In this document: positions 13,416-37,560 of the stretch, one piece after another
Numbering within the stretch: the stretch's first letter is position 1
Layout: each line of letters starts with the position of its first letter
Virus record (IMG/VR): IMGVR_UViG_3300011335_000900
Location: 1-64,000 of that record
DNA length: 64,000 nt
Source of the DNA: a virus
Strand: one strand, 5' to 3'
Program-made: the position numbers and the translations under genes
The notes under the pieces: model-generated
Database searches by the model: none
Told to the model about the DNA's origin: nothing
Seen by the model: only the letters and a program-made list of their open reading frames with translations

Positions 13416-13433
13416 ATTTATTAAAATTAATAC

Positions 13434-15187: not shown

Positions 15188-15205
15188 TTTAATATTTATT
15201 ATAAA

Positions 15206-15766: not shown

Positions 15767-15796
15767 ACAATTAAATCTATATAAACAATCAAATCT

Positions 15797-15970
15797 ATGA
15801 ACACAACAGAAATTTTTAACGCAATTCAAGAACAATTAGCTACTTTAGAAGCTGAACATGGTAAAACATCAAAAGCCGCTCGTGGTAGAGCACGTAGTGC
15901 CGCTAACAATATTAAAAAATTAGCAGCAGAATTTAAGAAAACTTCAACTGCAGAAGACAAAGCAGCTTAA
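15797..15970 (+). CDS. Histone H1-like (Hc1-family) small DNA-binding protein, 57 aa, not in ORF track
   Basis: My translation: MNTTEIFNAIQEQLATLEAEHGKTSKAARGRARSAANNIKKLAAEFKKTSTAEDKAA. The KAA..RAR.....L...F.K.S pattern matches Bacteroidota/Chlamydia Hc1. It fills the gap between neighbouring genes. Confidence 0.7.
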   Translation: MNTTEIFNAIQEQLATLEAEHGKTSKAARGRARSAANNIKKLAAEFKKTSTAEDKAA

Positions 15971-15973
15971 AAA

Positions 15974-16990: not shown

Positions 16991-16992
16991 AA

Positions 16993-17460
16993 ATGACTAA
17001 AGATCAACTTAAGAGAAGAATTCAAGACTTAGCTCGTCAAGTATACTCTGCTAACACTATTACCCCCGCAGAAGCTATCGAATACGATGAGTTAACTAAA
17101 TTCCCTGAACTTAAAAAAGTTATAGTTGATTTACTTACTTTAGAATATGATAATTTTTTATCCTCAATTGATTGGGTAGCACCTCGTCCTTCTACATTTA
17201 GAATTAATTTAAAAAACGACCAAAATTTTTATTTAATTTATGGAAGACGTAGTTGGATTGCTCAAGTAGAAGGTAAAAAATACTATTTACTTAATTTACC
17301 GGAAGAAGAGAGAGCTTCTCAATCTATAGCAAACATGCTAAGGTATGGCGTTAAAGGAGAAGAAGGTGACAGTGAAACTGGAGCTGGAATTGAAAGCTTA
17401 GAGACACCTCCTGCAGAAACACCTCCTGCAGAAACCCCAACAGAAGAAACACCAGCATAA
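16993..17460 (+). CDS. Hypothetical protein with ETPPA-repeat tail
   Basis: Intact ORF coupled to its neighbours (TAATG overlap with the next gene). Confidence 0.55.
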   Translation: MTKDQLKRRIQDLARQVYSANTITPAEAIEYDELTKFPELKKVIVDLLTLEYDNFLSSIDWVAPRPSTFRINLKNDQNFYLIYGRRSWIAQVEGKKYYLLNLPEEERASQSIANMLRYGVKGEEGDSETGAGIESLETPPAETPPAETPTEETPA

Positions 17461-18455: not shown

Positions 18456-18456
18456 C

Positions 18457-19134
18457 ATGGACAAATCCCGTTTAAAACACCTTATTAAAGAAGTATATTT
18501 AAAAAAAGATAGTTGCAACTGTGGTTGTCACAGCTGTGACAATGTAGGTAATACTGGTGTTGTACTAAATGAAAGTTTAGTTAAAAAAGAAATATTGTCG
18601 GAGAATCTGCGATATCACGTGGATAAACAACTCCCACTTACCGAAAACACGTTCCGATATGGTTCGCAATCATTCCTTAATTTATGGGCAGAAGCTCGTT
18701 CATTATATTTACGTGAAATTATTCATGTAAACGAAGATGATAAAGAAATTTTAGAGGAAACTGATTTAGGTAACTTTGGTTTATATGAAAATCAAAAAGT
18801 GCCTTTAGATTTACTTTTACTTGAAAACGAGGAACTTGAAGAAGCAGAAGATAAAAAGAAAAATCCCCCACTTGGAAAACCAAAGCGTGGAGGATCTAAA
18901 AAATTCTATGTTTACGTAAAAAACCCTCAAACTAAAAAAATTAAAAAAGTTAGTTTTGGAGACACAACAGGTCTATCAGCTAAAATAAATAATCCAAAAG
19001 CTAGAAAAGCATTTGCTGCACGTCACGATTGCAAAAATAAAACAGATAAAACTAAAGCTTCATACTGGAGTTGTAGGCTTCCAAGGTACGCAAAATTACT
19101 TGGATTAAAATCATCCTTTTCAGGATTCTGGTGA
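18457..19134 (+). CDS. Hypothetical phage protein (tagged N-terminus, basic C-terminal domain)
   Basis: ATG 18457 (MDKSRLKHLIKEV) preferred over TTG 18436; CNCGCHSC; C-terminal KKFYVYV...VSFGD...FAARHDC...YWSC. Confidence 0.55.
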   Translation: MDKSRLKHLIKEVYLKKDSCNCGCHSCDNVGNTGVVLNESLVKKEILSENLRYHVDKQLPLTENTFRYGSQSFLNLWAEARSLYLREIIHVNEDDKEILEETDLGNFGLYENQKVPLDLLLLENEELEEAEDKKKNPPLGKPKRGGSKKFYVYVKNPQTKKIKKVSFGDTTGLSAKINNPKARKAFAARHDCKNKTDKTKASYWSCRLPRYAKLLGLKSSFSGFW

Positions 19135-19508
19135 TGAATAGATTAGAAAAAATAGTACAAGAAGTACTTAAAGAACGTCCTGGTTTATGGGACAACATAC
19201 GTGCTAAACGTGAACGTGGGGAAAAACCATCTCCAAAAGGATCTAAAGCATATAAGACAGCTGTTAAAGCCGGAAAAGAAATTAATAAACTTTCCGAAGA
19301 AGAAACACCTGAACTCCAATTCCCCGATGGTTTTCAACCTGCAAAATCTGTTCCTCAAGGTGGTGCTATGTGTGCTAACTGTGCTAAATGGAATAAGAAA
19401 ACACAATTATGTGAAGGTCAATATTATATAGATTGGCATGGTAATGGTGAAATTCACGCTGATCCAACTGAATATATTTGTATCTGGTGGGTAGATAAGA
19501 GAAAATGA
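19131..19508 (+). CDS. Small protein with 4-Cys, HiPIP-like C-terminal domain
   Basis: GLWDNIRAKRERGEKP N-domain; CANC-x10-C...YICIWW. Confidence 0.45.
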   Translation: MMNRLEKIVQEVLKERPGLWDNIRAKRERGEKPSPKGSKAYKTAVKAGKEINKLSEEETPELQFPDGFQPAKSVPQGGAMCANCAKWNKKTQLCEGQYYIDWHGNGEIHADPTEYICIWWVDKRK

Positions 19509-19765
19509 TCCCATACACAGACATAGAAGTTACTGATAAATATATCATTCGTGAATTTAACGAAAATATAGATCCAATTGAACTTTTATGGCATCGTGAT
19601 GATGAAGCTAGAACAATTGAAATTCTAGAAGATACTAATTGGCAACTCCAGTTAGAAAATTGTTTGCCTACCTCACTAAAAGAACGTATATTTATACCAA
19701 GACACGAGTGGCATAGAGTCATTAAAGGAACAGGAACATTAAAGTTAAAAATACATAAATCATGA
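19505..19765 (+). CDS. Small cupin-fold protein
   Basis: WHRD..E and IFIPRHEWHRV match the two cupin motifs. Confidence 0.6.
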   Translation: MIPYTDIEVTDKYIIREFNENIDPIELLWHRDDEARTIEILEDTNWQLQLENCLPTSLKERIFIPRHEWHRVIKGTGTLKLKIHKS

Positions 19766-20034
19766 AATTAGATAATTTAAAACAATTAGTTAAAGAAGAA
19801 CTTAATCGTACTTTAAACGAAAATGTAAGAAACAATAAAGATATTAAAGCCGGAGAATATGAAATTACATATGAACCAATGATTGGAGAACCTAAAACTA
19901 TTACAGTTAAAGTAGAAGAGGACACTACTCCCCGTGATACAGAAAATTTTTGGAGAAGTTTATTATCTAAAACTAACAAAACATATAAATTAGAAGATCG
20001 TCAAAAGAAAATAAAAAAAATAGTAAAAAAATAA
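19762..20034 (+). CDS. Hypothetical protein with N-terminal tag
   Basis: MKLDNLKQLVKEELNRTLNE N-terminus is shared with 45239..45610. Confidence 0.55.
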   Translation: MKLDNLKQLVKEELNRTLNENVRNNKDIKAGEYEITYEPMIGEPKTITVKVEEDTTPRDTENFWRSLLSKTNKTYKLEDRQKKIKKIVKK

Positions 20035-20085
20035 CTTACAGACAGATTCATAGCCTGTCAACTTAAAAAAAATTATTAGAGATCT

Positions 20086-20116
20086 GTGGCCTCCTTTGGG
20101 AGGTCACTTTTTTTTT
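20086..20116 (+). terminator. Intrinsic terminator
   Basis: GTGGCCTCC-TTTG-GGAGGTCAC (9 bp, one G-U) followed by T9. Confidence 0.85.
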
Positions 20117-20126
20117 CGTATATTTA
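20096..20126 (+). promoter_or_regulatory. Putative Bacteroidota-type sigma70 promoter overlapping the terminator
   Basis: TTGG-N19-TATATTTA, 15 nt before ATG 20142. Confidence 0.55.
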
Positions 20127-20141
20127 AACATAAAATAAAAC

Positions 20142-21446
20142 ATGGACAAAAAAATAGTAATAGTAGGAGCAGGTGTAGCAGGTATAAATGCTGCAACTAA
20201 ATTAGTAGATAATGGTTATCCTGGAGAACTTATTACCATAATTGATATGGGTAAAGATCCATATAATCGCTTACCGGAGGAGGTAATGACAGGTATGCTA
20301 GGAGCTGGAGGATGGAGTGATGGCAAGTTAACTTACCATACAGCAATTGGTGGTGTATTATCAAAATACACAGGTGAGGAAAAAGCAATGGAATTGATGG
20401 ATCAAGTTATTACCAATTTTAAACGTTTCCACCCTAAACCAGAGGAAGTACAATGTTCAAACCCTGAATCTGAACCTGAATTTATTAAACCATACTTTGG
20501 TTTACGTTTGTTTCCTGTATGGCACGTAGGTACAGATTATCTATCTGAAATTGCTAAAAATTGGTACGATTATTTGGTATCTAAAGGTGTTGAATTTCAA
20601 TGGGAAACTAAAGTAACTAAAATTAATTTTAAACATAATATTGTAGTTACAAATGCTAGTGAAGTAGATAATTTTACTTTAGAATATGATGAACTTATAT
20701 TTGCAGTAGGTAAATCAGGAATTGATTTTGCTCAACAACTAGCAAACGAATATGAACTACCAGATGAACCTAAATCTGTACAAATTGGAGTTCGATTTGA
20801 GGCACCACAAGAACATTTTCAAAAATTAATTGATATTTCATATGACTTTAAGTTATATAGAAAATTTGAAGATAAAGGAGTATCATTACGTTCATTTTGC
20901 ACAAACAATAATGCAGCATTTGTTGCTGTAGAGGAAACATATGGTGATGTAAGTTACAATGGACATGCTAAAAAAGATCCTAAATATTTAAATGGAATGA
21001 CCAATTTTGGTATCTTAATGGAAATTAAAGGTATTGATAATCCATTTGAATGGTGTAGAGAAGCAGTTAAAAAAGTACAAATTGATGGAACTGGAACATA
21101 TTATAGCCCATCACGTAAACCATCATTAACATCAGAAGGTACAGATGTATCCTCGATTCAAGTAGAGGATTTAATGTATTTATATGATTCGTTAGGTGAA
21201 TATGCTCAATATATTGTTGATTTTATTGAAGATATGAAAAAAGTATTCCCTACACTTAAAGATGATTGGGGAATTTATATGCCGGAAGTTAAATATCTTT
21301 CACCAGAACCATTAGTAAATTATGAAGATCTTAGTTTAACAAAGTATCCTAACGTACATTTCGTAGGAGATGCTTTATCCGCTCGTGGTATAACAGTTTC
21401 GGGAGCGCATGGAGTTTATGTAGCAGAATCTATATTAAAAAACTAA
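20142..21446 (+). CDS. FAD-dependent oxidoreductase (COG2509-like)
   Basis: IVIVGAGVAG Rossmann motif; GAGGWSDGKL; RSFCTN; NGHA; NFGIL; C-terminal FVGD...GI. Confidence 0.8.
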   Translation: MDKKIVIVGAGVAGINAATKLVDNGYPGELITIIDMGKDPYNRLPEEVMTGMLGAGGWSDGKLTYHTAIGGVLSKYTGEEKAMELMDQVITNFKRFHPKPEEVQCSNPESEPEFIKPYFGLRLFPVWHVGTDYLSEIAKNWYDYLVSKGVEFQWETKVTKINFKHNIVVTNASEVDNFTLEYDELIFAVGKSGIDFAQQLANEYELPDEPKSVQIGVRFEAPQEHFQKLIDISYDFKLYRKFEDKGVSLRSFCTNNNAAFVAVEETYGDVSYNGHAKKDPKYLNGMTNFGILMEIKGIDNPFEWCREAVKKVQIDGTGTYYSPSRKPSLTSEGTDVSSIQVEDLMYLYDSLGEYAQYIVDFIEDMKKVFPTLKDDWGIYMPEVKYLSPEPLVNYEDLSLTKYPNVHFVGDALSARGITVSGAHGVYVAESILKN

Positions 21447-21451
21447 TTAAT

Positions 21452-21580
21452 ATGAAAAAAGAGAAAAAACAACTTACAGAATCTGAATCAAAACAAATTG
21501 ATCAAGATATTCTTTTTATTCGTCAAGCTATTCAAAAAGCTAAAAAAATTTTAAAAGAAAAATATGGGAAGGATATCTAA
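21452..21580 (+). CDS. Small hypothetical protein (42 aa), not in ORF track
   Basis: MKKEKKQLTESESKQIDQDILFIRQAIQKAKKILKEKYGKDI; fills the gap after the oxidoreductase. Confidence 0.4.
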   Translation: MKKEKKQLTESESKQIDQDILFIRQAIQKAKKILKEKYGKDI

Positions 21581-21821
21581 ATTACTTGCCGAAGTTTTAG
21601 CTTCTAATTACATTAAAATTATAAAATCTTTATTAACCCAAATTAATTGGGATGATTTAGATAGTAATTTTTTAGATATAAAAGAAGCATGTCATGTGTT
21701 AATTAAAAATATTTCTAGTATAGGGGAATATGAAGGGGAAAATGCTTCAAAATATTTAAAATTATTAAAAGATGAAGCTAAAGATCTTATATATGTTTTA
21801 AAAAGTTTAACAAATTATTAA
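21564..21821 (+). CDS. Hypothetical protein
   Basis: ORF in + strand run; no recognisable motif. Confidence 0.4.
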   Translation: MGRISKLLAEVLASNYIKIIKSLLTQINWDDLDSNFLDIKEACHVLIKNISSIGEYEGENASKYLKLLKDEAKDLIYVLKSLTNY

Positions 21822-21845
21822 AAATAAATATATAAAATAAAAGTT

Positions 21846-22385
21846 ATGAAAATAGGATTTTGCGGCACAATTTCAGTAGGTAAAACTACATTAGTTAATG
21901 CTTTAAAAGAACTACCAGAGTTTGCAGACTATCATTTTGCAACAGAGCGTTCAAAATATTTACGTGATTTGGGTATTCCATTAAACACAGATTCAACATT
22001 AAAAGGTCAACTTATATTTTTAGCTGAACGAGCTAGTGAATTACTTCATAAAAATATAATAACAGATCGTACAGTAATTGATGTTATGGCATTTAGTCAT
22101 TTATCAACTACTATCCCATTTTTTATATCTGCTGATTTAAATAAGGCTGTATCTGAATTAATACGAGATTATGATTACATATTTTATGTTTCACCTGAAG
22201 GTGTAGAACTAGAGGATAATGGAGTTCGTGTAGTAGATTCTAAATATAGAATAAAACTTGATAAAACTATTAAAAAATTACTAGAACAACATAAATCTAA
22301 ACTTAATACTATTAAAGGATATTCTGAACTATCAGGCACTACTGAGGAAAGAATACAAAAAATTAAACAAGTAATGTCCCTTTAA
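21846..22385 (+). CDS. P-loop nucleoside/nucleotide kinase (AAA_28, NadR/Ttd14-like)
   Basis: MKIGFCGTISVGKTT; ITDRTVID; YDYIFY...EDNGVR. Confidence 0.75.
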   Translation: MKIGFCGTISVGKTTLVNALKELPEFADYHFATERSKYLRDLGIPLNTDSTLKGQLIFLAERASELLHKNIITDRTVIDVMAFSHLSTTIPFFISADLNKAVSELIRDYDYIFYVSPEGVELEDNGVRVVDSKYRIKLDKTIKKLLEQHKSKLNTIKGYSELSGTTEERIQKIKQVMSL

Positions 22386-22406
22386 TATTTATTAATAAAA
22401 TACAAT

Positions 22407-23336
22407 ATGAAACAGACTCGATTACTTGAAATTATACGTGAAGAAATAGCTGGTGCTTTAAACGAAGCTGGACTTTTTACCTTAAAAGTACCTACAGATT
22501 CTAAAAAAGGTCTCCCCCAAACAACCGACCCTGATGATTCAACAGAAAAATCTCCAGATTTTTTAAAAAAATATAAAAAAGTAACTGAATCCGAAGAACT
22601 TGAAGAAGATACTTTAAATGAAGTTCCTGATTTTGGAGGTAGATATGATCAACAAGTAGCAGCAAAATATGGTGAAGATCAAACACTAGAAGATGCTACA
22701 AAAGATATAACAGATGAAATACTTAAAGATATGGGTGTTTCAAGAGATGACCTTAAAAAAGATGCAGATAAGGCAAAAGACGTACTTAAAGCTATCCGCT
22801 CTAAAGTAGTTGGTAAAGCTAGAGACCCAAGAGTTGCTAAAGCTTTAGAAAAACAAGAAGAATTTGATAATTCAGGTAATGCCCTTCAAGCAAACCAAAC
22901 AAACAATGCAATTTTAAAAGCACTAGGATTAAAAGAACCAGGACAACGTGGTAGAAAAGCTAGTGAAAAATCTGAACCTAAAGAAAAATCTACTAAAGCA
23001 AAATCTGAACCTAAAACAAAATCAGAACCTAAAGCAAAAGAAAGTAAAACAGATGCAGGAACAGATGACGAAGGAAATAAAGTAGAAATAGATACTACTG
23101 TTAAAACTCTTACAGGTGATAAAGAAATTGAAATTAAATTAAAAGATGTTATTTCTAAGAAAAAAGATAAATTAAAAGCAGCTTTAAAATCAAAAGATCA
23201 AGAAACATACAATAAAGAAAAAGCAGCTTTAAAGCAATTTTTAGAAAAAACAGAAATTGCAAAATATATTAAGAAAAAAACAGTTGATAAAGTTAATCCA
23301 TATACACTCTCTAATATAGAAAATGAGATAAAATAA
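22407..23336 (+). CDS. Charged putative head-internal protein
   Basis: MKQTRLLEIIREEIAGALNE tag; further VTE/LEE/LNE sites; KSEPK repeats; late motif at 22385. Confidence 0.5.
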   Translation: MKQTRLLEIIREEIAGALNEAGLFTLKVPTDSKKGLPQTTDPDDSTEKSPDFLKKYKKVTESEELEEDTLNEVPDFGGRYDQQVAAKYGEDQTLEDATKDITDEILKDMGVSRDDLKKDADKAKDVLKAIRSKVVGKARDPRVAKALEKQEEFDNSGNALQANQTNNAILKALGLKEPGQRGRKASEKSEPKEKSTKAKSEPKTKSEPKAKESKTDAGTDDEGNKVEIDTTVKTLTGDKEIEIKLKDVISKKKDKLKAALKSKDQETYNKEKAALKQFLEKTEIAKYIKKKTVDKVNPYTLSNIENEIK

Positions 23337-23337: not shown

Positions 23338-23697
23338 ATGGAGAATAAAATATTTCAAATAAAGTTATCCCATCTTATCATAGGTGGGATACTTTTGTTG
23401 TTAACAATATTTTTACTTAAATGTAATGTTACTCCAACATTTGTCAACACATATGATAAAGAAAAAAAAGAAATAGACAGTTTACAAGTTGAAATTAGTA
23501 AATTAAAACAATCACAACTTAAATTAAATAAAGATATAGATAAACAAATATTAATCACAGATTCATTAAATAAAGAAATTAAAATTACAGAAAAAGAGCT
23601 AACACAAACACGCACATATTATGCTAACAAAATTAAAAATATTAATAGTTCTTCTCCTTCTGAGCTTAACGAGTTTTTCACAGAAAGATACAAGTAA
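23338..23697 (+). CDS. Membrane-anchored coiled-coil protein, candidate spanin subunit
   Basis: N-terminal hydrophobic helix ending LLKC, then coiled coil; overlaps the next ORF in another frame, as in Rz/Rz1. Confidence 0.5.
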   Translation: MENKIFQIKLSHLIIGGILLLLTIFLLKCNVTPTFVNTYDKEKKEIDSLQVEISKLKQSQLKLNKDIDKQILITDSLNKEIKITEKELTQTRTYYANKIKNINSSSPSELNEFFTERYK

Positions 23698-24049
23698 AAT
23701 TTGCTTTTCATACAGTAAAGCAAAACAAATAGCAATTGACTTAGTTAAGGGAGATTCAGCTATAGCAGAATTAAAAATCACAAATAAATTAGTTTGGCAA
23801 TTAAACGAAAAAATTAATACTCAAGATAGTACTATTACACTTTACATAGCTAAAGAACAAAATTATATTAGTCAAATAAACAATTACGATAAAATTTCCA
23901 CTAAAAAAGACGAAATAATAACGGGTCTTGAAAAAGATGTTACTAAATTAACTAAAAAAAATAACCGTTTAAAATCAGGACTTAAATACCTTGGTGGAGG
24001 ATTCGTGGCTTCCATACTTACTATTATTACCTTGACATTAATTAAGTAA
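23621..24049 (+). CDS. Signal-peptide coiled-coil protein with C-terminal TM, candidate spanin partner
   Basis: MLTKLKILIVLLLLSLTSFS|Q signal peptide; coiled coil; C-terminal YLGGGFVASILTIITLTLIK. Confidence 0.5.
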   Translation: MLTKLKILIVLLLLSLTSFSQKDTSKICFSYSKAKQIAIDLVKGDSAIAELKITNKLVWQLNEKINTQDSTITLYIAKEQNYISQINNYDKISTKKDEIITGLEKDVTKLTKKNNRLKSGLKYLGGGFVASILTIITLTLIK

Positions 24050-28296: not shown

Positions 28297-29154
28297 ATGC
28301 AAATTAATCATTCCAAGTATAAAAATACTGGTATCCTATTTGAGCTCTTAATTCGCCAAATCACTAATGATACATTAGATAGTAAGGATTCACAGGCAAC
28401 GAATATACTTAAAAAATATTTCGTTAAAACGGAATTAGGTCGTGAGTATAAGTTATATGAAACTCTATTAAAAAAAACATCTTTAACTGAAACTAAAGCA
28501 AATATTATCACTAATACATTGCTAGATTCATCTAAATCTTTAAATAGAGGTGTTATTAAAAGACAAAAATATAATTTAATTAAAGAAATTCAAAATCATT
28601 ACGATTTAAATGAATTTTTTAACCACAAATTACCTAACTATAAAGTACACGCTGCATTCTATACATTACTAGAAATATCCAATTCTACTAACCAAATAGA
28701 CCCAGAACAAATTATCAATAATAAAGTTACTATACTAGAGCACTTAACAGCTGCCCAAATTAAAGCAACTAAAATTAAAGATGAAGTAATGAGTGAATTT
28801 GAAAAATCAGATAAAGATGTTCGTTTTATAGCATATAAAATGTTACTAGAAAACTTTAATGTAAAATACGATACATTACATACCAACCAAAAAACAATCT
28901 TAAAAGAATATATTACATCAGTAGATAATACTTCTCGTTTAAAAGAATTTTATACTAATAAGATAAATGAAATTAAAACAGAATTAGCTGATTTAAATAA
29001 AAGAACTAAAAATAAAGTTACAAAAATTAAAATTAACGAAATTATATCCATTATCACACCACCATTGAAAAATGCTAAGATTACAGATAATGATTTAGTT
29101 GATTTGTTACAGTATTATGACTTAATTAATGAATTAGAAACTGTAAATGAGTAA
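28297..29154 (+). CDS. Head-module protein of unknown function
   Basis: HSKYKNTGILFELL; between portal and protease; late motif at 28269. Confidence 0.55.
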   Translation: MQINHSKYKNTGILFELLIRQITNDTLDSKDSQATNILKKYFVKTELGREYKLYETLLKKTSLTETKANIITNTLLDSSKSLNRGVIKRQKYNLIKEIQNHYDLNEFFNHKLPNYKVHAAFYTLLEISNSTNQIDPEQIINNKVTILEHLTAAQIKATKIKDEVMSEFEKSDKDVRFIAYKMLLENFNVKYDTLHTNQKTILKEYITSVDNTSRLKEFYTNKINEIKTELADLNKRTKNKVTKIKINEIISIITPPLKNAKITDNDLVDLLQYYDLINELETVNE

Positions 29155-29578
29155 TCTTAAAGAAATAATTAGAAAAAAATTAAAAGAAATGTCCGCTACT
29201 AATCAAGGCGGTGCTTCTTTTAGTGCGGGAAGTGGTGAAACATATGCTACCCCATTTGCTTTTTCTAAAACTTCAAAACCACCTAAATATTATTATAAAT
29301 TAGGATATAAACCTGTACCTAATAAAATTAAAGGATCTAGTTTACAAGTTAAACAACTTTGGGAAGAAGAAAAAGAAAAAACAGATGTTAAAAAATTTCA
29401 AGAAGCAAGATTAAACGAATTTGATGAAATACAAAACGAACTAAATTCTCTTATCTCAAACGCAAAAAACCAAACCATAGAATACTATACATCAAACCCA
29501 GGCCAATTTAGTATATATAAACCAACATCAATGGCCTTAGAATATATTAAAAAAGCAAAAGAACTATTAAGTAAATAA
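29147..29578 (+). CDS. Head-module hypothetical protein
   Basis: MSNLKEIIRKKLKE tag; YATPFAF; LWE/LNE sites. Confidence 0.55.
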   Translation: MSNLKEIIRKKLKEMSATNQGGASFSAGSGETYATPFAFSKTSKPPKYYYKLGYKPVPNKIKGSSLQVKQLWEEEKEKTDVKKFQEARLNEFDEIQNELNSLISNAKNQTIEYYTSNPGQFSIYKPTSMALEYIKKAKELLSK

Positions 29579-29580
29579 AA

Positions 29581-31242
29581 ATGAAACAGACACTACAAGA
29601 CCAGTATTTATTGATTAAAGAAGGTAAAGGACATAAAGGAGTTTTCCTTGCAGATGCAAAACGTCAATTCCCAAATATTGTACGTAACGCCGCTACATTT
29701 GAGGAAGCATCATCTTGTCTTAAAACTAAAAATATAATTGCTGAAAATGTAATTGGATTAACTGCTGTTAATTCACCATTTGAACCTAAGAAAAAGGAAT
29801 CATACGAGTTAGCATTTGAAAACTTTTTAGCAGAAGCTAAAAAGAAAAAAGAAGAAGATGAAAAAGCTGAATTAAAAGCTACATCAAAACAAGTAGAAAA
29901 AGACTTAGAGCATAACTTTGATCGTAAAGATAATAAAAATCCTGATAACTTGATATTTGATCAAATTATGACGGGTTATTATACGGAAATGAAAGATCCT
30001 AAAAATGCAGATAAAACCATGCAAGAATTAAAAGACATGGTATTTAAAAACTTACAAAAAGATCCAATCTTTTATACAAAAGATGGCCAATTTGGAGTTA
30101 AAGGTTTAGGCTATTCAGTAGACCATCCCGGATTAGGTGAACCAAAAGAGCCTAAAGGAAAATATAAATCATCTGGATATGGTGATTTAAATGAAGGCAT
30201 CCACGACAGAGATATATTATCAAGACCCTTATCAAACCCTGATTATGAATCATTCGAACGATCATCTGAAGAGTTAGGCAACGAGGCAGATAATAGATCT
30301 AAAAATATGTTGCTAATGAAATACTCCAAACAAATCAATGATCCTACAATATCAGATGAAGACTTAAGATATATATTAGGTGGTAAAGGTGTTAAGGGTT
30401 TTGGTGGTAGACCAAATGCAATTGACAAAATTATAAAAGATAGAAATGAAGGAACATTAAACGAAGAATATAAATTACGTAAAGTAATTCGTGAAATGAT
30501 TTCTAAAGAACTTAATTCAGAAGAATTTAAAGATGCTCTTTTTAAATTAGAACAACCATATTTAAATGATAAAAAAGCATTGAGTGATATTCAAAAAATC
30601 TATACTTCACATAGTGCTGGTTTAAATTCAATTAGCCAAAATCTTAAAGAAAGCGTTGAAAAAGAATTGGCTGCTATTAATAAAGAAGCAGAACATGAAA
30701 TTATTGCTTCTAAATTAGAAAAAGTACAAACATTAATTGACAAAAAACAAGCCCAAATTTCCAGATTAGATGAAGATGAAGATTTAAAAGATCTTACCGA
30801 CGCTAAAAAAGTTAAAGAAATTTCAAAAGACATCAAATCACTAGAAAAAGCAAAAGCGAAATTAGAGAAAATGATGCATAAAGGTAAAGCAAAATCACCA
30901 CGTAAGGAAGTAATTGATGAAACAGATGAAACCATTGATGAAGCTGAAAATGAGGAATACATTGAGGATGCTGAAAAACGTCAAGATGATGGACAAAAAA
31001 TCCCTTCTATTTTAGCAAATTACAATAACATATCAGCCGAAAAAAGAAGAGAGATAGGACAAGGTTTAGAAGCTAGAAAACAAGATTTTGAAATTGATAA
31101 AGAAACAGCAGTAAAAATTAAAGAAAAAGCAAACCAATATTATAATGAATATGGTACTTTAGAAGATACGTTGAGTGAATTTGAAAATGAAGATGAAAAA
31201 GAATTTGCAAGACAACATTTAACAGACGCATACGGACTATAA
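29581..31242 (+). CDS. Large charged putative prohead core/internal protein
   Basis: Many (L/I)-x-E sites (LIKE, IAE, LAE, LNE, LKE, IDE); coiled-coil C-terminal half; directly upstream of the protease. Confidence 0.55.
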   Translation: MKQTLQDQYLLIKEGKGHKGVFLADAKRQFPNIVRNAATFEEASSCLKTKNIIAENVIGLTAVNSPFEPKKKESYELAFENFLAEAKKKKEEDEKAELKATSKQVEKDLEHNFDRKDNKNPDNLIFDQIMTGYYTEMKDPKNADKTMQELKDMVFKNLQKDPIFYTKDGQFGVKGLGYSVDHPGLGEPKEPKGKYKSSGYGDLNEGIHDRDILSRPLSNPDYESFERSSEELGNEADNRSKNMLLMKYSKQINDPTISDEDLRYILGGKGVKGFGGRPNAIDKIIKDRNEGTLNEEYKLRKVIREMISKELNSEEFKDALFKLEQPYLNDKKALSDIQKIYTSHSAGLNSISQNLKESVEKELAAINKEAEHEIIASKLEKVQTLIDKKQAQISRLDEDEDLKDLTDAKKVKEISKDIKSLEKAKAKLEKMMHKGKAKSPRKEVIDETDETIDEAENEEYIEDAEKRQDDGQKIPSILANYNNISAEKRREIGQGLEARKQDFEIDKETAVKIKEKANQYYNEYGTLEDTLSEFENEDEKEFARQHLTDAYGL

Positions 31243-31244
31243 CC

Positions 31245-31877
31245 ATGAACAAAGAACTCTTAATAGAAACCAGACAATTTACCCCTAAACCAGTTCGTTT
31301 AATTGAAGGAATGGGCAATGGCGGTAATGTATTTGTTGAAGGTATTTTAGCTACTGTTGAAGTAAAAAATGGTAACGGAAGATACTATAAAAAAGAGTTA
31401 TGGGATCGTGAAATTGAAAATTTTCAAAATAAAATTAAACAAAAATCTACAGAAACTGTAGGTGAACTAGACCACCCCGATTCTCAAGTAATTAATTTAA
31501 AAAATGCATCTCACGCCGTTCGTGATTTATGGTGGGTTGGAGATGAAATTCATGGCAAAGTAGAAATATTTTGTGACATGGGAGATAAAGGCACTACTTC
31601 AGGCCGTATTGCGGGAGCATTAGTTAAAAATGGTTTAGTTATTGGTATTTCCTCTCGTGGGATGGGTTCATTGAAACAAATGGGTGAAGTAATGGAGGTA
31701 CAAGATGATTTTGAACTATTAACATGGGATTTAGTTTCAAACCCATCAAACCCAGATTCATGGATGAAAAATGGTGCATTAAATGAATCACGTACTACAT
31801 TTTTAGACCCATATTCAAAAACCAACTCAATTATTACCGAAATCCTTTGCGCAAAAGGAACTTGTCCTTTATTTTAA
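31245..31877 (+). CDS. Prohead core protease (T4 gp21-like)
   Basis: KNGNGRYY; GELDHP (His); GISSRGMGSL (Ser); WDLVSNPS (Asp). Confidence 0.92.
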   Translation: MNKELLIETRQFTPKPVRLIEGMGNGGNVFVEGILATVEVKNGNGRYYKKELWDREIENFQNKIKQKSTETVGELDHPDSQVINLKNASHAVRDLWWVGDEIHGKVEIFCDMGDKGTTSGRIAGALVKNGLVIGISSRGMGSLKQMGEVMEVQDDFELLTWDLVSNPSNPDSWMKNGALNESRTTFLDPYSKTNSIITEILCAKGTCPLF

Positions 31878-32016
31878 AACGCGACTTTAATAATCTTATA
31901 CATACGTATACTAGAATATACCATCCCCCTCAACATATATGGTATTAATTAAATGAATATCTATTACGTTTTTTAAATAAACGTACTTTCCCAACAAAAT
32001 TAAATTTAGGAAAAAA

Positions 32017-33351
32017 ATGGCAACAAACAGAGCAATGCTTAAAGAAGCAATCGCTGACGCTAAAGCTGTAAAAGAAACAGCAATAGCAAACGCAAAAGCA
32101 GCCCTAGAAGAAGCCTTCACACCTCAACTTAAGTCAATGTTATCAATGAAACTTCAAGAAATGGAATCCGATGAGGACGATCTTGAAGAAACATACATAT
32201 CTGAAAAAAAAGATGAAGATCTTGAAGAAATGTATGGTAAAAAAGATGATAAAAACATGATGGAAGTTGATTTAGAAGAGCTTTTGGCTGAATTAGAAGA
32301 GGAAGAAATGGAAGAAGGTCTTTACGAAGCTGAAGAAATGGAAGAAGAAACTGAAGAAACAGAAGAAACTGAAGAAGAAACAGAAGACGAAGCTGAACCA
32401 ATCAACCTTGAAGACATGACAGATGAAGATCTAAAATCAATGATTGAAGATGTAATCGCGGACATGATTAAATCAGGTGAACTTGAAGCTGGTTCCGAAA
32501 GTGAAGAAGATGAAATGGAAATGGAAATGGAACCTGAAGAAGTAGAAGTAGAAGACGAAGATGTAGATTTATCTGAATTGTTAAGAGAAATCGAAGGTTT
32601 AGAAGAAGAATCAATGTTAGAAGGAAAAATTCCATCTAAAGAAGAATTAGAAGCTAAATTAGCTACTTTAACACCAGAAGAAGAAAAAATGTTATTTAAA
32701 GCTATTCAAGATGTAAATGCTTCAACATTATCAGAAGAAGAAAACGGAGCAGAAAAAGAAATTGAAACTGTGAAACAAAAAGTAGCAAGAATTGCACAAA
32801 CCGTTGGCTTAGGAGCTTCAACACTTGGAACAATTGCATTTATAGCTGGTGTCATTAATGATTCAGGAGCTGCTAAAGCTGCAAAAATGGCACAAACCAT
32901 ACCTATGGATGCCCTAGCGGCAGCTGGAGGTGTAGGAATTCTTATGGGTTTAGCTACGGCAATGTATGGATATCTTAATAAAAAGATGGAAGAATCAATG
33001 TCTGAAGAACTTGAAGAAGCTTATTCTACTATTGAAACTTTAAAGTCTGAATTAAACGAGATCAATTTGTTAAACGCTAAATTGCTTTATACAAACAAAA
33101 TCTTCAAGTCTAAAACTTTAAACGAAAATCAAAAAGTAAAAGTGTTAAGTTCTTTTGACAAAGCTAAAAACGTAGGCGAAGTAAAAATGGTATTTGAAAC
33201 ATTAAATGAGGGAATCAAAGTTTCAAAAAATACTATTAACGAAAACCTAGGTAGAGCTTCAAAAGGAACAATGGCACCTAACGTTAAAAAACCAATCGTA
33301 GAGTCAAACGAGGCATTTTTAAGAATGCAAAAATTGGCTGGAATTATTTAA
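32017..33351 (+). CDS. Prohead scaffold/core protein with an internal hydrophobic insert
   Basis: Between protease and capsid; very acidic; MLKEAIADAKAVKETAIANAK start; ends RMQKLAGII. Confidence 0.8.
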   Translation: MATNRAMLKEAIADAKAVKETAIANAKAALEEAFTPQLKSMLSMKLQEMESDEDDLEETYISEKKDEDLEEMYGKKDDKNMMEVDLEELLAELEEEEMEEGLYEAEEMEEETEETEETEEETEDEAEPINLEDMTDEDLKSMIEDVIADMIKSGELEAGSESEEDEMEMEMEPEEVEVEDEDVDLSELLREIEGLEEESMLEGKIPSKEELEAKLATLTPEEEKMLFKAIQDVNASTLSEEENGAEKEIETVKQKVARIAQTVGLGASTLGTIAFIAGVINDSGAAKAAKMAQTIPMDALAAAGGVGILMGLATAMYGYLNKKMEESMSEELEEAYSTIETLKSELNEINLLNAKLLYTNKIFKSKTLNENQKVKVLSSFDKAKNVGEVKMVFETLNEGIKVSKNTINENLGRASKGTMAPNVKKPIVESNEAFLRMQKLAGII

Positions 33352-33380
33352 ATTATAAATTAAAAACAAAAAACAAAACA

Positions 33381-35129
33381 ATGTCAACAATTAATTCATT
33401 ACTCGAAAGTTCTGCTTCCGGATGGAAAAACATGCAGAACGATGCCGCTAGAATGGCATCAAAATGGGGTAAAACAGGTCTCTTAGAGGGACTTGGTAGC
33501 GAAGTTAACAAAAATAACATGGCTATGATCCTCGAAAACCAAGCAAAACAGTTAGTAACTGAGCAATCATCAACAGGTGGAGCAGGTACTCAAGGCGGTT
33601 TTACAGCTGGTCAAGGTGAACAATGGGCTGGTGTAGCGCTTCCATTGGTACGTAAAGTATTTGGTTCTTTATCAACTAAAGAATTCATGTCTGTACAACC
33701 AATGAATCTACCTTCAGGTCTTGTATTCTTTTTAGATTTTCAATATGGAGATGCAGGAGGAGCAAATGGTAAAGCAGCACCAACAGGTCCTTTTGGCCCT
33801 ACTGGAAATACTTATGCTGCCGCTTCATCTATGTACGGTGAAACTAACCCAGCAAATGGAGGAGATCCTACAAACGGTTTATATGGTGCAGGTCGATTTG
33901 CATATTCAATAAACCAATTCTCTGCATCTTTGCAAGTATCTCGTTCAGCTGCTCTTTGGAGTGACGTTGATTATGATACTACATTATCTGCATCAATTGC
34001 TGCTGGTAATGTTTATTCAAAAGTAACTTATTTTGTAGGTACTGGTACAAACGCTACACGCCCTGACTTTAAAGGTGTTCGTGCATTCGTTCCTGGTTCT
34101 GGATCAACAACAGCTCCAATAACTGAGACTTATACTCGTTTATTACCTCAGTACACTGCTACTAATGGTACTTCAACTATTACCTTTATTTTCTCTGGTT
34201 CCGCAACAGGAGCATATGATGCTGCTACAGGTATTCCAGCTACAGGATCAGTAGTAACTGCAAATACTTTATTCTACAATGTACAACCAACAGATAACAC
34301 TCGTGGTGACTTTGAAGATAAATCAGGAGCAGGATATGCAAATGCTGAATCTACAGCAGCAGATAACTTAGCTATTCCAGAAATCAATATCCAAATGAAA
34401 TCTGAAGCTATTGTTGCTAAAACTCGTAAGTTAAAAGCACAATGGACACCAGAATTTGCACAGGATTTGAACGCATACCAATCATTGGATGCTGAAGCTG
34501 AATTAACATCAATTATGTCTGAATATATTGCTCTAGAAATAGATCTTGAAAACTTAGATATGTTGATCCAAGATGCTTCTGCTGCAGATGAGTACTGGTC
34601 AGCTAAAAATAATAATAGCCTAAATGCTGCAAAAACAGCTTGGGATACTACAGCTAACTTTTACAACACACAAGGTGCATGGTTCCAAACTTTAGGTACT
34701 AAGTTTCAAAAAGTATCTAATAAGATTCACCAAAAGACTCTTAGAGGTGGTGCTAATTTCTTAGTATGTTCTCCAGCAGTAGCAACTATCATTGAATCAA
34801 TCCCAGGATTTGCTTCATCTTCAGATGGTGATGTTACTAAAGGTTCATATGCTTTTGGTATCCAAAAAGCAGGTCAATTTAACAGCCGTTACACAGTTTA
34901 CAAAAACCCTTACATGACAGAAAACGTTATTTTGATGGGTTATAGAGGAGCTCAATTCCTTGAAACTGGTGCTGTATTTGCTCCATATGTACCGTTAATC
35001 ATGACACCTCTTGTGTACGATCCAGTAACATTTACTCCACGTAAAGGTTTATTGACTCGTTACGCTAAGAAAATGATCCGTCCGGAATTCTTCGGTCGTG
35101 TATTTGTTAATGATTTAGCTGCAGTTTAA
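33381..35129 (+). CDS. Major capsid protein (T4 gp23-like)
   Basis: LPLVRKVF; SVQPMNLPSGLVF; AKTRKLKAQWTPEFAQDL; GAVFAPYVPL; TPRKGLLTRY. Confidence 0.95.
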   Translation: MSTINSLLESSASGWKNMQNDAARMASKWGKTGLLEGLGSEVNKNNMAMILENQAKQLVTEQSSTGGAGTQGGFTAGQGEQWAGVALPLVRKVFGSLSTKEFMSVQPMNLPSGLVFFLDFQYGDAGGANGKAAPTGPFGPTGNTYAAASSMYGETNPANGGDPTNGLYGAGRFAYSINQFSASLQVSRSAALWSDVDYDTTLSASIAAGNVYSKVTYFVGTGTNATRPDFKGVRAFVPGSGSTTAPITETYTRLLPQYTATNGTSTITFIFSGSATGAYDAATGIPATGSVVTANTLFYNVQPTDNTRGDFEDKSGAGYANAESTAADNLAIPEINIQMKSEAIVAKTRKLKAQWTPEFAQDLNAYQSLDAEAELTSIMSEYIALEIDLENLDMLIQDASAADEYWSAKNNNSLNAAKTAWDTTANFYNTQGAWFQTLGTKFQKVSNKIHQKTLRGGANFLVCSPAVATIIESIPGFASSSDGDVTKGSYAFGIQKAGQFNSRYTVYKNPYMTENVILMGYRGAQFLETGAVFAPYVPLIMTPLVYDPVTFTPRKGLLTRYAKKMIRPEFFGRVFVNDLAAV

Positions 35130-35150
35130 TAGCAAATAAACAAGTAATAA

Positions 35151-35177
35151 AGAGCCGAACGAAAGTTCGGCTTTTTT
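35151..35177 (+). terminator. Intrinsic terminator after the major capsid gene
   Basis: AGAGCCGAAC-GAAA-GTTCGGCTTT (GNRA loop) followed by a T-tract. Confidence 0.85.
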
Positions 35178-35213
35178 AGTTTTTTATTAATATTTATCAA
35201 CAAATATAGTTAT

Positions 35214-35912
35214 ATGAATGATTTTAACCGAACTCCGGAAGCAAAAAAGGTTTTTCAAGAAAAAAGAAAACCAAAAGGTCCAATTAAATTTAATATCCAA
35301 TTAAACGAAGAGCAAAAACGTGCTAAAGAACAAATTCTTTATAACACTGTAACTGTTTTAAAAGGTAAAGCTGGATCTGGTAAATCGCTATTAGCAGCAA
35401 ATATTGCTTTAGATTTACTTTTTAGTAGAGAAATTGAAAAAATAATCATTACTCGCCCAACAGTAGTAGCAGGACAAGATATTGGCTTCTTACCAGGAGA
35501 TGTAAACGAAAAATTAGCTCCATTTACTGCTCCTGTATATGAAAATATGCATCGCCTATACAATAAAGAAAAAATTGAAAAATGTATAGCGGATGGTGAA
35601 ATTGAAATTGTTCCTGTATCGTTTATGCGTGGTAGAAACTTTACTAATTGTTTAGTTGTAATTGATGAAGCTCAAAACTTAACAGATACACAAATGGAAC
35701 TTTTGCTAACTCGTATATGTCATGGTTCAAAAATGGTATTTTGTGGTGATGGTGCCCAAATTGACTTAAAAGATCGTAAATCTTCTGGATTTGATGTTGT
35801 ATGTAAACATATGAAAGATGTACCTGGATTTGAGGTAATTACCTTAGAAAAAAACCATAGACACGAAATTGTAGAATATATTTTAGACATATATAAAAAT
35901 CTTAGAGCATAG
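35214..35912 (+). CDS. phoH: PhoH-family ATPase
   Basis: GKAGSGKS; IIITRP; IGFLPG; FMRGRNF; IDEAQN; LLTR; GDGAQIDL; NHRH. Confidence 0.92.
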   Translation: MNDFNRTPEAKKVFQEKRKPKGPIKFNIQLNEEQKRAKEQILYNTVTVLKGKAGSGKSLLAANIALDLLFSREIEKIIITRPTVVAGQDIGFLPGDVNEKLAPFTAPVYENMHRLYNKEKIEKCIADGEIEIVPVSFMRGRNFTNCLVVIDEAQNLTDTQMELLLTRICHGSKMVFCGDGAQIDLKDRKSSGFDVVCKHMKDVPGFEVITLEKNHRHEIVEYILDIYKNLRA

Positions 35913-35957
35913 GATTAAGATTAAAGTTTTTGTCAATATTTATAACAAAAATATCAA

Positions 35958-36404
35958 ATGTCAACTACTTTAACACCATCAACATTTAGAGTAACTATCT
36001 CAGAGGAGCAAATAGTTAAAAATAAAACTATTCAAAACGATAGTGTATATTCTATCTCTAATGTAACTAATGTTGATAGAAGAATATTAACATGCCCTCA
36101 AACAACATCAATTAATTTATTTAATTTAAATGGCCCTAACCCAGGAGCGGGTACATTTCCCTCAAGTAGTTTAAAATATGCTCGTATTACAAATTTAGAT
36201 AATACAAATAATATTGCTTTAACAATAAGTGGTTCTACAACTTCATTTACTCAAGAGGTATTACCTCAATCAAGTATATTTGTTATAAGCTCAAATGTTA
36301 CCTCAAGTAAATTTAATGGTACTTTTGGAGACGATATTAATTTTATCCAAGCATACGCTATAAGCGGCAGCATTGATATAGAATATACACTAGTAAACTC
36401 TTAA
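35958..36404 (+). CDS. Putative virion protein
   Basis: Beta-rich; KYARITNLD; late motif at 35936. Confidence 0.5.
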   Translation: MSTTLTPSTFRVTISEEQIVKNKTIQNDSVYSISNVTNVDRRILTCPQTTSINLFNLNGPNPGAGTFPSSSLKYARITNLDNTNNIALTISGSTTSFTQEVLPQSSIFVISSNVTSSKFNGTFGDDINFIQAYAISGSIDIEYTLVNS

Positions 36405-36408
36405 AAAC

Positions 36409-37560
36409 ATGGCAAATATTCCCATATGGAGCGGAAGCTCTACATTTACCCCAGGAGAAACACCATTTGGTTTTTATGATAACGATCTACAATTCCAAGT
36501 AGATATTGATAAATTTGCTGTATTTGCTTCTCGTCGATTAGGATATCCAATAGTTGAAATTGAATTACAAGACTTAAATTTTTATGCTGCATTTGAAGAA
36601 GCAATTACTACATACGGAAACGAAATATATGCTTATCAAGTAGCTGAAAATTTATTAACTTTACAAGGAGCACCAACAAATGTAGCACCTGGTAATAATG
36701 AATTAGTTCAAGAAAATTTATCTAATGTTATTTTACTTTCAAACCAATATGGAACAGAAGCTGGAGTTGGAGGAACAGTATCTTGGTATACAGGATCACT
36801 TACATTAACTCCTGGAGTACAAAATTATGATATGAAATCTTGGGCAACGTCCCAAAATATTCAAGGTGGTATTGAAATTAAACGCATATTTTACGAAAAT
36901 ACACCAGCTATTACTAGATATTTTGACCCGTATGCGGGTGCAGGAGCTGGAATGATGAGCATGATGGATAGTATGGGATTTGGAGGATATTCTCCTGCAA
37001 TGAACTTTATGTTAATGCCTTTAAGTTACGATATGCAAAAATTTCAAATGATTGAATTTAATGATCAAATCAGAAAATCTCAATATTCATTTGAATTAGT
37101 AAACAATATGTTAAGAATATTTCCTATTCCAAATGGAGGTGTAGATACATTACGATTTGAATATATTTTATTATCGGATCGAAATCAACCTTATGTTGAA
37201 CGAAACGGTCAAAGCATAATTACCAACGCCTCTAATGTACCATATACTAACCCAACATATACTACGATAAACTCGATTGGTCGTCAATGGGTATTTGAAT
37301 ATGGACTAGCAATAGTTAAAGAAATTTTAGGATATGTAAGAGGTAAATACTCAACCGTACCAATCCCAGGATCTGAAGTAACCTTAAATCAAGGAGATTT
37401 AATTTCTGCAGCAACAACCGAAAAACAAGCATTAATTGAACGTTTAAGAGCATATTTAGACACAACATCACGTAAAGTTTTACTTGAAAACAAGTCACTT
37501 GAAGCAGAATTTCAGAATAAAACTATAGCACAAGTACCAATGACCATTTTTATAGGATAG
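36409..37560 (+). CDS. Neck/head-tail adaptor (T4 gp13-like)
   Basis: RRLGYPIVEIEL; AIVKEILGYVRGKYSTVPIPG..VTLN; C-terminal IFIG. Confidence 0.75.
   Translation: MANIPIWSGSSTFTPGETPFGFYDNDLQFQVDIDKFAVFASRRLGYPIVEIELQDLNFYAAFEEAITTYGNEIYAYQVAENLLTLQGAPTNVAPGNNELVQENLSNVILLSNQYGTEAGVGGTVSWYTGSLTLTPGVQNYDMKSWATSQNIQGGIEIKRIFYENTPAITRYFDPYAGAGAGMMSMMDSMGFGGYSPAMNFMLMPLSYDMQKFQMIEFNDQIRKSQYSFELVNNMLRIFPIPNGGVDTLRFEYILLSDRNQPYVERNGQSIITNASNVPYTNPTYTTINSIGRQWVFEYGLAIVKEILGYVRGKYSTVPIPGSEVTLNQGDLISAATTEKQALIERLRAYLDTTSRKVLLENKSLEAEFQNKTIAQVPMTIFIG

Follow-up and report, generated by a model that had tools for sequence, protein, structure and literature searches.

Why the head-scaffold gene of a T4-like phage encodes two hydrophobic helices is the question raised by the locus analysed here, which lies in a stretch of viral DNA of 64,000 nucleotides, referred to below in its whole length as the window (positions 1 to 64,000 of IMG/VR record IMGVR_UViG_3300011335_000900). 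An initial annotation quoted, at 32611-33015 (+), a peptide of two Gly/Ala-rich hydrophobic helices bounded by x-x-E sites within an extremely acidic scaffold, and proposed that maturation would release it as a membrane-active product or that it tethers proheads to the membrane. The quoted peptide is exact on translation and in frame within an ORF of 444 aa, whose surroundings are as follows:

31245..31877, + strand: prohead core serine protease of the T4 gp21 type, presumed cutter of the scaffold (Pfam Peptidase_S77, E 1.2e-26; PHROG 207, head maturation protease, E 7.5e-48)
32017..33351, + strand: gp22-like scaffold by position, 444 aa, host of the cassette (ORF between the protease and capsid genes)
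33381..35129, + strand: major capsid protein, gp23 type (Pfam Gp23, E 4.7e-71)

TerL is followed by the portal gene, three small ORFs of the core region, the Peptidase_S77 protease, the scaffold ORF and the Gp23 capsid gene, with Portal_T4 and Terminase_6N matches upstream of the scaffold ORF, as in a T4-like head module, and the capsid protein conserves [VI]-[TS]-E61 where the propeptide junction is expected (alignment A3). ORF 32017-33351 is called a scaffold because it is placed between the Peptidase_S77 protease and the Gp23 capsid gene, and it is best explained as encoding the gp22-type scaffold for the heads of a freshwater, so far uncultured, T4-like myophage. The closest cultured relative of the source phage is Flavobacterium phage immuto, with 51% identity in the C-terminal scaffold domain (aa 331-444), the corresponding value for Microcystis phage Mel-JY01 being 40%. 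The description of the host protein as extremely acidic is borne out by a net charge of -72 over aa 46-240 (Glu 34%; 20.5% in the whole scaffold). It contains 20 [LI]-x-E and 30 [LIVM]-x-E sites, and its full-length AF2 model is all-helical at low confidence (mean pLDDT 39).

The likeness to T4 gp22 lies in a gene located between those for the protease and the capsid, an acidic helical product and many L/I-X-E sites. Unlike gp22, with which no similarity was detectable using Pfam, PHROG, NCBIfam or tblastn, the scaffold studied here holds an 86-residue hydrophobic swappable module, and the fragment of gp22 retained in T4 heads is small, and is not known to be hydrophobic or variable. Pfam, PHROG and NCBIfam searches with the scaffold gave no match, and tblastn against 50,697 phage records matched six of them, T4 not being among these. 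The best E in a PDB profile search was not under 0.097, and the ESM Atlas yielded no usable feature match, its structure rows having TM <0.5. Since similarity to T4 gp22 is not detectable, the protease specificity applied to the scaffold is extrapolated.

At the DNA level, the ORF is divided into two conserved arms and a variable region between them:

32017..32596, + strand: left homology arm, comprising the conserved N-terminal helix (aa 1-49) and the acidic part (alignment A1 has invariant columns here)
32597..33005, + strand: variable cassette (DNA-level definition), two-helix hairpin group T2 (blastn breaks, contig loose ends)
33007..33351, + strand: right homology arm, conserved C-terminal scaffold domain, aa 331-444 (A1 columns nearly all invariant)

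In nearly all of the 30 related viral contigs listed, blastn similarity stops at 32596-32646 and restarts at 32996-33043, the flanks reaching identities of up to 96%. In contigs from public runs, loose ends lie at 32596 and at 33006, and one joint connects 32596>33001. In four runs from four studies, one contig per run spans the cassette of the window, and further contigs of the same runs diverge at 32596 and 33006, continuing with letters that read as a T1 cassette. Contig depth in public runs falls over the cassette; summed contig depth is unfit to rank parts of a gene, and bridging contigs and loose ends were used instead. The RNA-library contigs X15 and X16 also span the cassette; DNA can occur in such libraries, so they do not prove transcription. 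The head-scaffold gene contains a cassette slot, of which region 32597-33005 represents one allele, and co-occurring relatives would exchange the slot by homologous recombination within its two conserved flanking arms.

A second variable patch is present in an upstream ORF; allele mapping with the chosen anchors yielded one usable locus.

The variability of the insert among related scaffolds, which the initial annotation had put forward as a check, is evident both from these sharp boundaries and from a census of 164 sampled scaffolds, in which 125 distinct cassettes form 21 groups: six with one or two hydrophobic helices, seven soluble and eight short fillers. This sample (the best 120 of >8,000 matches, plus loci) was seeded throughout with the scaffold of the window and is biased accordingly. 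The contents of the slot vary in length from 24 residues, in acidic or Lys/Glu fillers, up to inserts of 173 residues, single-helix alleles being the commonest (84/164), and in Flavobacterium phage immuto it holds a soluble tandem cassette. Among the 126 scaffolds whose C-terminal domain is at least 95% identical to that of the window, 84 carry T1, 40 carry T2 and two, on an almost identical backbone, carry no cassette, which is the behaviour of a replaceable insert, as in T4-type internal proteins. Hydrophobic segments occur in 6 of the 13 long cassette groups; besides the scaffold ORF, the window has 58 ORFs, and 6 of these have such segments (Fisher p 0.006). With seven soluble groups and eight of short fillers, the slot as such does not exist for the sake of membrane activity; and, because some relatives have a soluble cassette or none at all, the membrane hairpin is one of many interchangeable cargoes rather than a fixed feature of the scaffold. 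Pfam, PHROG and NCBIfam searches with the window cassette and 10 other alleles gave no significant match. An intein or mobile element was also considered and rejected, no such domains having been found and the slot being filled elsewhere by 24-43-residue fillers.

Within the allele of the window, the following elements were delimited:

32605..32736, + strand: cassette lead, soluble and acidic/helical (aa 197-240), ending in L-S-E240
32737..32994, + strand: passenger, aa 241-326, which a limit digest by the protease is predicted to leave as a piece of 86 aa (largest [LIVM]-x-E fragment)
32791..32859, + strand: hydrophobic helix 1 (aa 259-281), Gly every 7 residues (KD19 1.75)
32911..32979, + strand: hydrophobic helix 2 (aa 299-321), Gly every 7 residues (KD19 1.64)

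The two helices with x-x-E bounds proposed initially are recovered as two hydrophobicity peaks limited by L-S-E240 and M-E-E326. In a predicted limit digest at [LIVM]-x-E, the largest piece of the scaffold is exactly 241-326 (86 aa), the runner-up having 43 aa. This region is Glu-poor; residues 241-325 have a net charge of 0, Ala and Gly accounting for 20% and 13% of them, and the passenger includes a 74-residue run without Glu, for which an arithmetic estimate gives a chance of ~1e-5 over all start positions. The 19-residue Kyte-Doolittle mean peaks at residue 262 (1.75) and again at residue 299 (1.64), in both cases just over the 1.6 that usually serves as the threshold on this scale. On the Eisenberg and Wimley-White scales, helices 1 and 2 have mean hydrophobicities of 0.58 and 0.60 with low moments (0.14 and 0.11) and octanol sums of -1.18 and -0.09 kcal/mol, respectively. 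Each has an uncharged stretch of 23 residues (H 1.41 for that of helix 1). As the Kyte-Doolittle, Eisenberg and octanol values are near threshold, the helices of this allele are marginal and not strongly hydrophobic. Its charges are +4/-2 in the N flank, +2/-2 in the loop and +2/-5 in the C flank; its own charge bias is therefore weak, the loop having two Lys and the C flank being acidic past two Lys.

Positions 32779-32802 and 32875-32898 share 83% identity over 24 nt, and helix 2 appears, from the sequence, to be related to helix 1 through a 32-codon internal duplication. AF2 was confident in one of five models of the cassette (75.8 vs 44-55), which had no match when compared with known folds. 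An exhaustive phmmer search with the passenger against 1.84 billion representatives gave three matches and no free-standing homologue, two being parts of the same scaffolds, broken by frameshift or truncation, and the third a spurious Ig-repeat protein. At 32605 and 32989, a 13-nt direct repeat gives each end of the cassette a similar Glu-Glu-Ser-Met site of protease type; as an insertion footprint it was discarded, a repeated 13-mer also arising in 201/1000 codon shuffles of the region.

Hydrophobic cassettes display the charge asymmetry of membrane proteins across the family: in single-helix types, the N flank has 0-1 basic and 2-5 acidic residues and the C flank 3-6 basic ones, with a predicted N-out/C-in topology, and in hairpin types the N flanks carry +3 to +6 and the loops are neutral or acidic. 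In five groups of single-helix cassettes, the nearest [LIVMT]-x-E is 0-9 residues upstream of the helix. Across hairpin alleles 27-89% identical, G66, G73 and G80 of helix 1 and G106 and G113 of helix 2 are invariant (alignment A2 numbering), and so are, across divergent alleles, Pro8 and Ser9 of the cassette lead; alleles only 27-31% identical retain the Gly heptads, the loop Ala-Lys, and the Tyr and Lys-Lys-Met past helix 2. For three pairs (73 codons), dN/dS was 0.26-0.67 in the hairpin, below 1 in all three, versus 0.34-1.06 in the acidic arm; that of the C-terminal domain was 0.04-0.24.

The unrelated inserts of the close relatives are mostly small peptides of membrane type lying between head-protease motifs; therefore, the scaffold is probably a cargo carrier too. 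The explanation that we prefer, tentatively and by analogy with T4 internal proteins, is that the passenger is an accessory cargo borne by the scaffold and freed by the protease. We infer that the process would occur as follows. The peptide would enter every prohead as part of the scaffold, being loaded at scaffold copy number without need for a targeting tag, since it is carried in as a part of that protein. While embedded between an acidic arm of ~240 residues and the capsid-binding arm, it would be prevented from productive membrane insertion. Cutting after [LIVM]-x-Glu, the gp21-type protease would release an 86-aa (or shorter) peptide, which should resist more cutting because it has no Glu. 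The freed peptide would then insert into a membrane, its basic ends facing the cytoplasm. Most likely, it would be retained in the head and pass with the DNA into the next host, as T4 internal proteins do. There, it may play an accessory, host-specific role, for example on membrane-bound host functions or defences.

In T4, ~1,000 internal proteins, cut at L/I-X-E, are ejected, with ~360 copies of each one being loaded via the prohead core; their poor conservation between close relatives has been attributed to an arms race (PMC9026906, PMC9958956). The likeness to IPI, IPII, IPIII and Alt consists of core loading, release at L/I-X-Glu and replaceability, both release and ejection being predicted in our case. 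T4 internal proteins are soluble basic products of separate genes with a 10-residue N-terminal tag. Unlike them, the cargo studied here is an internal cassette of the scaffold, tagless, 1:1 with the scaffold and often of membrane type; a capsid-targeting sequence of ~10 residues at the N-terminus of a separate product is absent, the passenger being internal to the scaffold ORF. Retention of scaffold pieces has a precedent in the T4 mature head, where a gp22 fragment of 2.5 kDa is present in 115 copies (PMC9026906), along with a 3.9-kDa gp67 fragment (PMC9026906 Table 1). P1 DarA/Hdf and the head-internal or ejection proteins of SPN3US/phiKZ are also cut by a prohead protease and co-ejected, some having a role in head morphogenesis, and the cited passages do not apply the term transmembrane to them (PMC12810830, PMC5694885). 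They differ from the cassettes in being separate, large soluble proteins with long propeptides, not cassettes of the main scaffold.

Other destinies of the peptide have to be weighed. It might be cut out, exit the prohead and act late in the membrane of the producing cell, as a holin/antiholin-like lysis timer tied to head maturation or as an exclusion or depolarising factor. Two-helix holins and pinholins and the coat proteins of Pf3 and M13 have ~50-90 aa, the hairpins having both ends basic, and the freed hairpin (~76-86 aa, two helices, basic ends) shares the architecture of small two-helix holins, which supports this possibility. Pf3/M13-type coats, with an acidic short N-tail, a basic C-tail and Sec-independent insertion, resemble the single-helix cassettes. 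Late action is also consistent with a charge asymmetry that fits insertion from the cytoplasm, with a weak match of the T1-type scaffold P0029 to Holin_LLH (E 0.0042; 17.9 bits, under the 24.9 cut-off), and with the departure of most T4 core fragments from the head (PMC9026906). However, we consider it unlikely. No significant holin family match was found for the window allele or any cassette searched (for the window cassette, none at E up to 1, nor in a second search at 0.1), and, unlike holins and coat proteins, cassette peptides are not free-standing genes, are not beside an endolysin and lack a family match. Moreover, release would precede DNA packaging, and a pore-forming peptide as abundant as the scaffold would hurt the energy supply of the phage; close relatives carry soluble cassettes or none; and lysis could be served by the small ORFs 14567-15187, 23338-23697 and 23621-24049 of the window, which have strong N-terminal hydrophobic segments and no Pfam match.

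A comparably low probability is assigned to a cassette without a function of its own, being either a spacer that is tolerated and evolves fast or a hydrophobic module whose self-association aids core condensation, and being degraded after assembly. The wide size tolerance of the slot, the near-neutral evolution of the adjacent acidic arm (dN/dS up to 1.06), and the lack of known-family matches for the cassettes searched and of a free-standing homologue of the passenger would agree with it. However, a spacer would need neither the membrane-type charge asymmetry shared by unrelated hydrophobic cassettes nor a cleavage motif right before the helix of single-helix types, and the residues kept by divergent hairpin alleles, the long Glu-free run inside a protein with ~20% Glu, and a hairpin dN/dS below 1 in all pairs also argue against it. 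Very improbable is the anchoring of the uncut scaffold, and hence of the growing prohead, to the inner membrane by the hairpin, with proteolysis freeing the head. A two-helix hairpin, for which M13 procoat offers a comparison, could insert with both scaffold arms cytoplasmic. T4 proheads are built on the inner membrane and come off it once gp21 has cut (PMC9026906, PMC9958956), but the T4 tether is the portal, not the scaffold (PMC9026906). The commonest alleles, being single-helix and predicted N-out/C-in, would leave one scaffold arm across the membrane, and hundreds of shell-enclosed scaffold copies could hardly all reach the bilayer. Taking into account these alleles, together with the relatives with a soluble cassette or with none on almost identical backbones, the membrane tether of the initial annotation fails as a general explanation.

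Returning to the scaffold-borne cargo, a bolder version, which is rather unlikely, may be envisaged. An essential scaffold gene would double as a delivery vehicle, its swappable slot loading hundreds of peptide copies per virion (here, a membrane hairpin) that would stay inactive as long as they were embedded, be activated by the protease and enter with the injected DNA to make a first attack on the host membrane, whether against membrane-bound defences, for the exclusion of competitors or as an aid to DNA entry, and the alleles would constitute a population-level arms-race arsenal.

Scaffold genes belong to the conserved core of T4-like phages, and the portions of the literature covered by our search contain no description of a cassette slot with such peptides in one of them. 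If the proposal is true, it would represent a new route for loading capsid cargo, tagless and with a fixed stoichiometry to the scaffold, and it would supply candidate phage membrane effectors of a new class, either injected or acting late. The natural alleles present on nearly identical backbones constitute a concrete, testable set, and the slot suggests a simple way of putting peptides into T4-like heads.

The source record is a 129-kb viral contig with an estimated completeness of 80%, and the stretch is present in runs of riverine, freshwater and lake metagenomes. Its head module runs from a Terminase_6N large terminase and Portal_T4, through three ORFs for which no family match was found, to the protease, the scaffold ORF, the capsid gene and PhoH, and includes the following features:

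31245-31877, prohead protease (Peptidase_S77, E 1.2e-26)
32017-33351, + strand, scaffold ORF of 444 aa (ORF translation)
33381-35129, major capsid protein (Gp23, E 4.7e-71)

Among cultured phages, the capsid protein is closest to that of Flavobacterium phage immuto (57.5% identity) and next to that of Microcystis phage Mel-JY01 (47%). The scaffold ORF has no match in Pfam, PHROG or NCBIfam, and a PDB search found no relative; it is named a gp22-like scaffold because of its position, its abundance of [LI]-x-Glu sites (20, rising to 30 when [LIVM] is allowed) and its composition, the extreme acidity noted initially being borne out by a net charge of -72 across aa 46-240.

Translation of 32611-33015 reproduces exactly the peptide quoted in the initial annotation, which was described as two Gly/Ala-rich hydrophobic helices bounded by x-x-E sites. 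An in-silico cut at every [LIVM]-x-E releases aa 241-326 (86 aa) as the largest fragment, the second largest having 43 aa. This passenger, in sharp contrast to the remaining protein, has a net charge of 0, Ala and Gly contents of 20% and 13%, and a 74-residue run free of Glu, a residue that makes up 20.5% of the whole protein. Its helices stand out as two peaks of the 19-residue Kyte-Doolittle mean (KD19; 1.75 and 1.64) and show high mean hydrophobicity with a low moment on the Eisenberg scale (0.58/0.14 and 0.60/0.11), but are only marginal on the octanol scale (-1.18 and -0.09 kcal/mol). Nucleotides 32779-32802 and 32875-32898 (24 nt, 83% identity) encode K-V-A-R-I-A-Q-T and K-A-A-K-M-A-Q-T, and the two helices appear to be related through an internal 32-codon duplication. 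No free-standing homologue of the passenger was found among 1.84 billion representatives, nor was any family or fold match.

The firm result is that the scaffold gene contains a hypervariable cassette slot. Scaffold relatives numbered at least 8,000 in a word-seeded search, of which the best 120 were used, and a viral contig scan located 46 loci, the scaffold ORF being present in 42. When window positions 29001-36500 were compared by blastn with related viral loci, DNA similarity ended at 32596-32646 and restarted at 32996-33043 in nearly all 30 loci displayed, with identity of up to 96% in the flanks. The variability of the insert, which had been proposed as a check, is evident: 125 distinct cassettes from 164 scaffolds fall by single-linkage into 21 groups.

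Cassette groups among related scaffolds
Hydrophobic-helix groups (n=6): T1, T2, T4, T7, T16, T20
T1: 84 scaffolds, one helix
T2: 43 scaffolds, two helices, window allele included
Soluble groups (n=7): T3, T5, T6, T8, T11, T15, T19
Filler groups (n=8): 24-43 residues, acidic or Lys/Glu

Among the 126 scaffolds whose C-terminal domain is at least 95% identical to that of the window, 84 carry T1, 40 carry T2 and 2 have no cassette, in a sample biased because all sequences were seeded with the window scaffold protein. The N-terminal helix and the C-terminal ~110 residues are common to the window, immuto and Mel-JY01 scaffolds; at the cassette site, immuto has a soluble, Lys-rich 53-residue module, tandemly duplicated, and Mel-JY01 has nothing comparable. 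The immuto homologue (3095-4336 of locus L001, from NC_055915) bears the annotation 'DNA polymerase phi-like protein', a label that is probably spurious and due to the acidic low-complexity region. In Mel-JY01 (1573-1800 of locus L002, from PP395634), a gene for ribosomal protein bS21 lies between the prohead protease and scaffold genes, a placement also described in freshwater Bacteroidetes myophages (PMC9723584).

Contigs from 4 runs of 4 studies were aligned over 31900-33500. Every run has one contig that spans the full cassette and differs in no more than 4 letters (records 6, 11, 22, 29). Other contigs break at 32596 and 33006; when translated by eye, their loose ends give E-M-E-D-N-E-K and I-S-D-T-G-M-G-G-S-G, the start and end of a T1 cassette, as in the related locus L005. 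Therefore, the alleles coexist in the same waters with identical break points. The joint 32596>33001 was found in 2 runs. It has to be noted that 2 of the 4 runs are metatranscriptome libraries, whose contigs are no proof of transcription.

Hydrophobic content is enriched in long cassettes (6 of 13 groups, versus 6 of 58 other window ORFs at KD19 >= 1.5; Fisher p 0.006). In single-helix cassettes (T1, T4, T7, T16, T20), basic residues number 0-1 and acidic ones 2-5 in the 12 positions upstream of the helix, basic residues number 3-6 in the 12 positions downstream, and the closest preceding [LIVMT]-x-E is separated from the helix by 0-9 residues; two-helix cassettes have 3-6 basic residues in the N flank and a neutral or acidic loop. 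Judged from sequence, these flank charges match, across the family but weakly in the window allele, the pattern of real membrane proteins, leading to a predicted topology of N-out/C-in for the single helix and N-in/C-in for the hairpin. Divergent hairpin alleles, 27-31% identical to that of the window, retain in each helix glycines spaced 7 residues apart, as well as the loop Ala-Lys, and Tyr plus Lys-Lys-Met past helix 2. In three pairs, with small counts, dN/dS was 0.26, 0.67 and 0.65 for the hairpin, 0.04-0.24 for the C-domain and 0.34-1.06 for the acidic arm. The capsid protein conserves [VI]-[TS]-Glu61 at the position of the T4 gp23 cut.

Other parts of the window also vary. The 553-aa ORF at 29581-31242, which directly precedes the protease gene and occupies the place of gp67/gp68 in T4, begins with M-x12-I-K-E, resembling a T4 capsid-targeting sequence, and its DNA similarity to relatives ends at 30195-30203 and restarts at 30638-30649; in the related locus L035 the middle segment is longer and of another kind (194 aa from one motif anchor to the other). 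This patch (~30198-30645) may be a second cargo slot. In the major capsid gene, similarity breaks from ~33922-34006 to 34265-34293 in many loci, and the region 33931-34290 seems to be a surface insertion that varies. Many otherwise unrelated ORFs within 10580-22500 and elsewhere (for instance 10580, 11364, 13434, 19762, 22407, 29147, 29581, 45239 and 58602) open with a short amphipathic leader that terminates in [LIVM]-x-Glu. Such leaders are reminiscent of T4 capsid-targeting sequences; the motif is loose, and the terminase matches it too.

The T4 prohead core contains 576 copies of gp22, and gp21 cleaves after L/I-X-Glu; core fragments mostly exit the head, but a gp22 fragment of 2.5 kDa (115 copies) is retained and ejected, as are ~1,000 internal proteins, which are poorly conserved among relatives (PMC9026906, PMC9958956). 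By analogy, helices still embedded in the scaffold would not insert productively into a membrane, and in single-helix alleles insertion would push one scaffold arm across it; cleavage would yield a short-tailed, Glu-free peptide capable of inserting. We favour the reading that the freed peptide is kept in the head and injected. Alternatively, it could exit the head and act late in the producing cell, for instance in a holin-like role. Candidate lysis genes elsewhere in the window bear on this alternative: two overlapping small ORFs just upstream of the terminase (23338-23697 and 23621-24049) have strongly hydrophobic N-termini (KD19 2.38 and 1.97) and no Pfam match at a limit of 0.01, and a 206-aa ORF (14567-15187) has a hydrophobic N-terminal segment (KD19 2.55) and, at the same limit, a sole Pfam match to GAF (E 0.0095, below cut-off). 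The tethering of proheads to the membrane, also suggested initially, is unlikely as a general role: the single-helix topology speaks against it, as does the occurrence of cassettes that are soluble or missing, and in T4 the portal serves as the tether (PMC9026906). The initial observation stands and its first interpretation is partly supported, the release, retention and membrane activity of the peptide being what we infer.

No description of such a cassette was found in the portions of the literature available on transmembrane segments in scaffolds or on hypervariability of gp22, nor any mention of it in the accessible text on related freshwater Bacteroidetes myophages (PMC9723584). The closest known system is that of the T4 internal proteins, with P1 Dar proteins and giant-phage ejection proteins as further analogues (PMC12810830, PMC5694885). 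Unlike in these systems, the cargo would here be a cassette lying inside the main scaffold gene, stoichiometric with the scaffold and often a membrane-type peptide. We propose that the slot may be a means of loading accessory cargo without a targeting tag.
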